Source: a virus (lineage: Duplodnaviria; Heunggongvirae; Uroviricota; Caudoviricetes). From it: 34,304 nt of DNA. The stretch covers positions 1 to 34,304 of the IMG/VR virus record IMGVR_UViG_2703718827_000010; one strand, 5' to 3'. A program made the position numbers and the translations under genes. Below are positions 21,841 to 22,026 of this stretch, piece by piece (the first letter of the stretch is position 1; the number at the start of each line of letters is the position of its first letter). The notes under the pieces were generated by a model. It had not been told where the DNA came from and did not search any database. It saw nothing but the letters and a program-made list of their open reading frames with translations.

Positions 21841-22026
21841 ATGATCCTGATGATTCTCGCCCCGTTGATCGGGGTGATGGGCGCTATTTTGCTTTCGTTT
21901 GGTGTATGGATGATTTATCCGCCAGGAGGCTTAATCAGTGCGGGTATGCTTTGCCTTATCTGGTCATGGCTGGTTTCCCGCACGCTTTCGCTGGCCGGGA
22001 AAACATTGCGAGGAGGGACTGACTGA
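21841..22026 (+). CDS. Small two-helix membrane protein between terminase and portal
   Basis: AGAGG RBS; 61 aa with two hydrophobic segments. Confidence 0.4.
   Translation: MILMILAPLIGVMGAILLSFGVWMIYPPGGLISAGMLCLIWSWLVSRTLSLAGKTLRGGTD

Follow-up and report, generated by a model that had tools for sequence, protein, structure and literature searches.

In tailed phages, the interval between the genes of the large terminase and the portal protein may hold a small gene. In phage lambda this interval, between A (large terminase) and B (portal), contains the gene for gpW, a soluble head-completion protein; in phage Sfi21 it contains orf59c, encoding a protein of the DUF1056 family (PF06341, phrog_1142); and in the cryptic prophage e14 of Escherichia coli K-12 the gene ymfR (b1150, 'IPR020297 domain-containing protein') is flanked by remnants of the terminase (ymfN) and portal (beeE) genes. 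Analysis of the virus record IMGVR_UViG_2703718827_000010 (IMG/VR; Caudoviricetes; positions 1 to 34,304, this whole stretch of 34,304 nucleotides being referred to as the window) showed the presence, in the same interval, of an intact open reading frame (ORF) of 61 codons at 21841–22026 on the plus strand, encoding a predicted membrane hairpin of the YmfR/phrog_502 family. This identity and the genetic description of the gene are given with high confidence. The hairpin gene is an accessory gene of long standing, kept by selection on the portal side of head modules of the P27/HK97 type; many lineages have it and some lack it. The gene itself is already known, being present in RefSeq and in PHROGs and having a named homologue, ymfR, in E. 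coli K-12.

Family membership and predicted architecture of the small gene

The small ORF begins with ATG at 21841 and ends with TGA at 22024–22026; its product is MILMILAPLIGVMGAILLSFGVWMIYPPGGLISAGMLCLIWSWLVSRTLSLAGKTLRGGTD. The Shine–Dalgarno sequence AGAGG, read from the sequence at 21831–21835 on the plus strand, precedes the start codon by 5 nt and sits directly 3' of the stop codon of the large terminase gene (21828–21830), and GAGG-type motifs occupy the same spot in relatives. A preliminary description of this DNA had reported a small ORF with its own ribosome-binding site and two hydrophobic helices between the large terminase (TerL) and the portal protein, and this was borne out, translation signal included, by the reading of the ORF and its signals, the Pfam assignments of the neighbours, hydropathy and AlphaFold2. 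An antisense ORF of 118 amino acids (21915–22271, minus strand) overlaps the small ORF and the start of the portal gene; it is a mechanical ORF that nothing supports.

The protein matches the PHROGs family phrog_502, 'membrane protein', with an E-value of 5.8e-20 (residues 1–51 on profile positions 3–53 of 58), and BLASTP against YmfR of E. coli K-12 showed 57% identity over the full length (E 6e-19). An identical protein, WP_008323320.1, was already annotated by the Prokaryotic Genome Annotation Pipeline as 'hypothetical protein' in an E. coli prophage, which is 98% identical to the window over the 2-kb stretch around the small ORF; the nearest named proteins are from Citrobacter. Among deposited phages, tblastn and blastn detected a homologue at the same place in phiP27 (L37), ST64B (Sb3), SfI, SfII, SfIV, phiKO2 (gp3), Yersinia YeP phages, several Klebsiella phages and Marinobacter phage AS1, and also in PY54, where it is present and unannotated. 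A word-indexed profile search yielded 633 family clusters at 90% identity, and 509 clusters at 50% identity (E <= 0.001), nearly all of 50–75 amino acids, were obtained when 1.84 billion representatives were searched exhaustively with the profile; phrog_502 was matched by all 37 diverse family members that were aligned. Family members share with the window protein a length of 59–64 amino acids, the position between TerL and portal and the glycine core described below, and nothing essential differs.

Pfam gave no match to the window protein at E <= 0.1, and no meaningful match to it or to diverse family members was found in Pfam, NCBIfam or PADLOC. Literature searches aimed at the function of YmfR-family and DUF1056 proteins yielded no functional study, ymfR being named in gene lists only. 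Homologues are usually deposited as 'membrane protein' or 'putative integral membrane protein'. Other labels are misleading, namely the PHROGs category 'moron' and 'head-tail joining protein W'; the latter, given to a YmfR-like ORF in ON470580, ON470603, ON470584 and PQ793804, is a positional mis-annotation. With lambda gpW the window ORF shares only the position and a size of ~60–70 amino acids, and identity with gpW was rejected on the basis of two predicted membrane helices, a grand average of hydropathy (GRAVY) of +1.26 and no Pfam match below E 0.1.

Conservation in relatives, which the preliminary description had named as a check on the gene, was found. The search for related loci showed 501 viral-contig stretches encoding a relative; in the 80 of these that were kept, which had been found through their similarity to the ORF and represent 32 distinct proteins, the ORF is intact in 80 of 80. 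Over 54 distinct DNA versions, the ratio of nonsynonymous to synonymous substitution rates (dN/dS) has a pairwise median of 0.28 and pooled values of 0.18 for residues 1–46 and 0.59 for the tail. The small ORF is thus a real gene under purifying selection, and its reading as a non-coding spacer is ruled out by dN/dS.

The family-wide core is G14-x6-G21-x-W-x2-Y-x-P-A-G-x4-G35, followed by R47, and residues 11–35, turn included, form the most conserved stretch. Each of G14, G21 and G35 is kept in 128–132 of 134 representatives; in the turn columns P28 is found in 114, A29 in 106 and G30 in 120 of them. The window protein carries G11, G14, G21, G30 and G35, and differs from the family in G29, where the family has Ala, and from distant members in P8, where these have Asp. 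The motif LCLxWS of the second helix is confined to the enteric/Marinobacter subfamily.

According to hydropathy, AlphaFold2 and family conservation, transmembrane helix 1 is predicted at residues 2–25 (21844–21915, plus strand), with conserved G11, G14, L17, G21 and W23. It is followed by a tight turn, YPPGG in the window and Y-x-P-A-G in the family consensus (21916–21930), predicted to face the periplasm, by predicted transmembrane helix 2 at residues 31–46 (21931–21978), which carries G35 and the subfamily motif, and by a short predicted cytoplasmic tail at residues 47–61 (21979–22023), variable except for R47. The AlphaFold2 model, built with 21 homologues, has helices at 3–25 and 29–56 with a three-residue YPP turn between them (mean predicted local distance difference test score 70). 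On average, family members carry 0.72 Lys and Arg residues ahead of helix 1, 0.05 within the turn and 1.73 beyond helix 2; because of this distribution and the positive-inside rule, the topology is predicted to be N-in/C-in, with the turn outward. The window protein is therefore modelled, from hydropathy and Lys/Arg content, as an inner-membrane helical hairpin of ~6.5 kDa. Small residues (Gly, Ala, Ser, Thr) make up about one third of the helices. The family profile found no match at E <= 1 among PDB sequences, virion structures of phages included, and Foldseek of the AlphaFold2 model against the PDB returned a single non-significant match, V-ATPase subunit e (E 7.8). Natural tandem-duplicated hairpins, with four helices per chain, were found in metagenomes (P0166, 122 amino acids; P0201, 102 amino acids).

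Coupling and co-inheritance with the portal gene

The constant downstream partner of the hairpin gene is the portal gene, located in the window at 22026–23255 on the plus strand (PF04860, E 1.9e-107). At 22026 the portal ATG begins on the last base of the stop codon of the small ORF, giving the sequence TGATG (22024–22028), and the portal Shine–Dalgarno sequence GAGGAGGG (22010–22017) lies within the final codons of the small ORF, where it encodes Arg-Gly-Gly of the tail. In 87 related loci this overlap is 1 nt in 71 and 4 nt in 9, and the hairpin gene starts 9–12 nt past the TerL stop in 66. One of the motifs GGAGG, GAGG, AAGG, GGGG or AGGA is found 4–12 nt before the portal start, inside the hairpin ORF, in all 32 distinct 3' ends. 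Judging from these signals, the hairpin gene is translationally coupled to the portal gene. An apparently conserved C-terminal GG[DEK]/EGD is seen because the portal Shine–Dalgarno sequence is read in the hairpin frame (22010–22023), and GG[DEK] was accordingly rejected as a protein motif.

The order TerL–hairpin–portal was found in phiP27, ST64B, phiKO2, PY54 and Marinobacter phage AS1. A profile scan of genome contigs gave five loci, one of them spurious (L093), and the same order is present in Pseudaeromonas/Aeromonadaceae and in metagenome-assembled genomes of Sphingomonadales and Solirubrobacteraceae (Actinomycetota); in each of these the hairpin gene reaches the portal ATG or stops 3 nt short of it. 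All seven distant members examined in metagenome contigs directly follow TerL, and the gene after them abuts or overlaps them; this next gene encodes a PF04860 portal in six, while the seventh locus ends at the contig edge without a Pfam call. The prohead protease of the distant modules is of the S78 or S49 type. One distant module (L102, 4474–4813; L103, 3619–3958) contains two more small ORFs, of 56 and 52 amino acids, between the portal and the S49 protease genes.

Families of similar architecture occupy the same slot. DUF1056 resembles the window protein in its length of ~60 residues (59 in Sfi21 orf59c), in its two hydrophobic helices and in its location between TerL and a PF04860-type portal, which in Sfi21 is followed, as in the window, by the protease and the major capsid protein; it is present in 79 of 79 usable Sfi21-like loci obtained by portal-anchored retrieval. 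No reliable similarity between the two families was found: hhalign of the YmfR-family alignment against orf59c gave a probability of 0.5%, the window protein does not match PF06341, for which orf59c itself scores 39.5 bits at a cut-off of 22.2, and a weak phrog_1142 match (E 3.9e-5) was seen in one of 37 YmfR-family members. Unlike the window ORF, orf59c does not overlap the portal start and is separated from it by 17 nt. In Escherichia phage Evi, an ORF of phrog_7105 with two helices has the same TerL–portal position; it is shorter (53 amino acids), lacks the W-x2-Y-x-P-A-G turn and is a remote relative of YmfR (hhalign probability 89%; phrog_502 match with E 1.7e-6). The 3' region of TerL of Evi has ~82% DNA identity to that of the window, while the portal is 29% identical. 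The view of the preliminary description that membrane proteins are not expected at this site was not supported, as the same gene is recurrent and annotated in P27/HK97-type head modules and has a DUF1056 counterpart in Sfi21-type phages.

The last 14 codons and the stop codon of TerL (SLSDHLESYGVRSL*; 21786–21830, plus strand) are inherited together with the small ORF and the portal gene and not with the body of TerL. BLAST matches of Klebsiella phages extend from ~30 nt before the TerL stop onward, while those of phages Evi and mEp235 are confined to TerL and end ~45–60 nt short of its stop, and a crossover near the 3' end of TerL is visible in the alignment. In a comparison of 57 distinct loci, the Spearman coefficient between the identities of hairpin core and portal is 0.76, and that between the identities of hairpin core and C-terminal 250 residues of TerL is 0.40; for the last 12 residues of TerL (LSDHLESYGVRSL in the window; loci L009–L088), the coefficients are 0.82 with the portal and 0.33 with the TerL body. 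In 297 pairs with portals more than 90% identical and TerL bodies less than 60% identical (mean 39%), identity is 83% in the TerL tail and 75% in the hairpin core. Since both the hairpin and the TerL tail track the portal, the mosaic unit comprises the TerL C-terminal tail of ~13 codons, the hairpin and the portal. The extreme C-terminus of TerL in lambda is a prohead/portal-binding domain (PMC4856287). By analogy with lambda gpA, the data suggest that the TerL tail of the window would be a portal-docking specificity tail, and the whole block looks like a docking-specificity cassette, the hairpin gene lying in a stretch given over to the contact of terminase and portal.

Genomic setting in the window

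The neighbourhood of the small ORF is, according to Pfam, a P27/HK97-type packaging and head module. Genes were found for an HNH endonuclease (19069–19419), a P27-family small terminase (19576–20073), TerL (20073–21830, plus strand; PF03354 and PF20441), the S78 prohead protease (23242–23895) and the major capsid protein (23909–25117), the last two following the portal gene. Rfam gave no match in the small-ORF region.

The lysis cassette is located downstream of a Q-like antiterminator gene (14329–14907), at 15949–17744 on the plus strand. It contains a Phage_holin_8 gene (15949–16335) in tandem with a Phage_holin_3_7 gene (16322–16603), followed by genes of a GH19 endolysin (16603–17220) and an Rz-like DUF2514 protein (17217–17744). 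Between the lysis and HNH/terminase genes, a plus-strand ORF of 224 amino acids (18159–18833) shows a partial Phage_Tail_Tip match (E 5e-7), an odd location for a tail-tip-like domain. Just 5' of the tape-measure gene (29395–31812), an ORF of 227 amino acids without a Pfam match is present (28652–29335, plus strand). In the related E. coli prophage L001, a gene for a small YebO-family protein occupies this slot, where a moron would be more usual than at the site of the small ORF. The sole Rfam/ARAGORN match in the window is a tRNA-Arg gene (anticodon TCT; 6573–6649, minus strand), which may mark the prophage integration site or a boundary with host DNA.

Possible roles and comparison with known systems

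The best overall explanation, put forward tentatively, is that of a portal-coupled hairpin acting at the membrane in the portal/prohead step. The sequence shows neither a promoter nor a terminator set apart for the hairpin gene, which reads as belonging to the late head operon and is translated immediately ahead of the portal. As proposed with low confidence, the place of action of the hairpin in this step would be the cytoplasmic membrane, where it could offer the new portal a membrane site or help, as a chaperone, in forming the ring and initiating the prohead; this mechanism of portal assembly is, taken by itself, possible and somewhat doubtful. The hairpin would probably act as an oligomer: the tandem-duplicated four-helix versions give a hint of this and suggest that hairpins pack side by side. 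The portal/prohead role is favoured because phage gene order usually keeps interacting partners together and because families of the same architecture share the slot.

Several points weigh against this explanation. An interaction with the portal is inferred, and we know of no membrane requirement described for HK97-like prohead assembly. Conservation is concentrated in residues 11–35, that is, in the outer-leaflet half and the turn, with the cytoplasmic ends variable save R47; as a soluble portal would dock at the cytoplasmic ends, a conserved outer-leaflet side argues against docking. In the enteric proteins hardly any N-terminal residue reaches the cytoplasm, and the tail of ~14 residues is partly dictated by the portal Shine–Dalgarno sequence. 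Phages of the mEp235 type, whose portal is 34% identical to that of the window, have TerL directly abutting the portal and no hairpin gene in 79 of 79 loci, and the presence of the hairpin does not simply follow portal similarity. Furthermore, as the TerL tail is co-inherited too, the linkage of hairpin and portal may be hitch-hiking between two co-adapted elements.

The main rival explanation, which we consider rather unlikely, is a late effector inside the host membrane, influencing membrane potential or permeability or the timing of lysis, blocking DNA entry by other phages, or binding a universal membrane protein such as YidC, Sec or FtsH; the place before the portal would then be a mere recombination-protected niche. 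It agrees with conservation in the membrane-embedded outer half and turn, with almost nothing being exposed to the cytoplasm, with a portal linkage explicable by hitch-hiking and with the gene being dispensable in mEp235-type phages. When YmfR was over-expressed in a first-round screen, a halo of D-alanine release was seen, a weak and non-specific indication, and such halos can, according to the authors of the screen, reflect leakage induced by membrane proteins (PMC10299036). The effector explanation is opposed by the retention of one exact position from Enterobacterales to Actinomycetota, by the family of the same architecture, without reliable similarity, in the same slot of Firmicutes phages, and by the lack of a match to PADLOC defence models. 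Host-directed accessory genes are usually sporadic and lineage-specific.

The gene could also be mainly a translational device, which sets translation of the portal through coupling or draws the late mRNA to the membrane during insertion of its hydrophobic N-terminus, the mature peptide being a harmless by-product. The portal Shine–Dalgarno sequence inside the ORF and the stop/start overlap in nearly all relatives fit such a device, and a generic physical property would explain why families without reliable similarity share the slot. This reading is quite improbable given the strong purifying selection on specific residues across phyla (G14, G21, G35; dN/dS 0.18) and given that mEp235-type phages couple TerL straight to the portal without a hairpin; 61 codons would, moreover, leave little time for co-translational targeting.

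Co-expression with the portal in fixed proportion and the hydrophobic hairpin architecture would suit a minor virion or DNA-ejection protein at the portal vertex, inserting into the inner membrane of the recipient. A protein of this hydropathy that has no soluble domain should, however, enter the membrane of the producing cell itself, and the family profile finds no PDB chain, virion structures included; such a role is very unlikely.

The preliminary description had proposed a moron acting on the host membrane late in infection. The term moron stands here for a recently acquired, independently expressed host-modifying gene of lysogenic conversion. Such a gene carries a promoter and terminator of its own, has an atypical base composition and is patchily distributed, and none of these features holds for the window gene. 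On the plus strand no sigma-70-like promoter site was found between 18500 and 25500; no convincing terminator follows the small ORF, the operon terminator being located at 25123, past the capsid gene, and the only nearby plus-strand terminator-like match (21861–21881) lies inside the small ORF and is weak, with three GC pairs. The GC content of the ORF is normal (0.527, vs. 0.49–0.51 in the neighbours, with 0.495 in TerL and 0.492 in the portal gene), and in portal-anchored retrieval presence is all-or-none by lineage (79/79 Sfi21-like, 0/79 mEp235-like), which differs from the patchiness of morons. Under an SOS-inducing compound, ymfR of e14 rises with other e14 genes by a log2 value of 4.5, about 23-fold (PMC10012262), and this co-induction is the behaviour of an induced prophage gene and not of a lysogenic-conversion gene. 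In favour of a moron are the PHROGs category of phrog_502, 'moron, auxiliary metabolic gene and host takeover', which is a category label only, and the occurrence of membrane-protein morons, such as the superinfection-exclusion protein gp15 of HK97, in HK97-like late operons; like them, the window gene encodes a small membrane protein among virion-assembly genes. With its coupling to the portal and its position constant across phyla, the gene is most improbable as a moron.

Equally improbable is a holin, pinholin or antiholin: two transmembrane helices in N-in/C-in orientation, ~60 residues as in class II holins and an abundance of small residues in the helices would fit, but two holin-family genes are already present in the phage's own lysis cassette, no holin-family match was found in Pfam or PHROGs, the C-terminal tail is short and weakly charged, and the family gene is in no lysis cassette among the loci examined. 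The ASKA clone of ymfR showed growth sufficient for scoring at 0.1 mM isopropyl β-D-1-thiogalactopyranoside, which is only suggestive as to non-lethality (PMC10299036). The reading as a defence gene was rejected, as PADLOC models gave no match at E <= 1 to four family members.

The pattern worth keeping is that a membrane hairpin of ~60 residues, coupled to the portal gene, is found in hundreds of phage lineages of at least two phyla, and that Gram-positive phages have a look-alike without reliable sequence similarity at the same spot. If the hairpins play no part in portal nucleation, they would represent a very widespread late membrane effector. The membrane-acting portal/prohead hairpin has its nearest functional counterpart in T4, where the initiator of the portal (gp20) is membrane-bound and depends on gp40 and YidC (PMC9958956). 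The likeness between the hairpin and gp40 with host YidC is a functional analogy only, that of a phage factor enabling the portal ring at the inner membrane, and a sequence relationship is not expected. To our knowledge, genes 40 and 20 are not neighbours in the T4 genome. In its broadest and unlikely form, the proposal is that the hairpins of YmfR/phrog_502, phrog_7105 and DUF1056 have a general and hitherto overlooked part in the assembly of HK97-type heads, as an oligomeric membrane ring that would nucleate or chaperone the portal dodecamer; if so, prohead initiation would be membrane-bound in these phages, as it is in T4.

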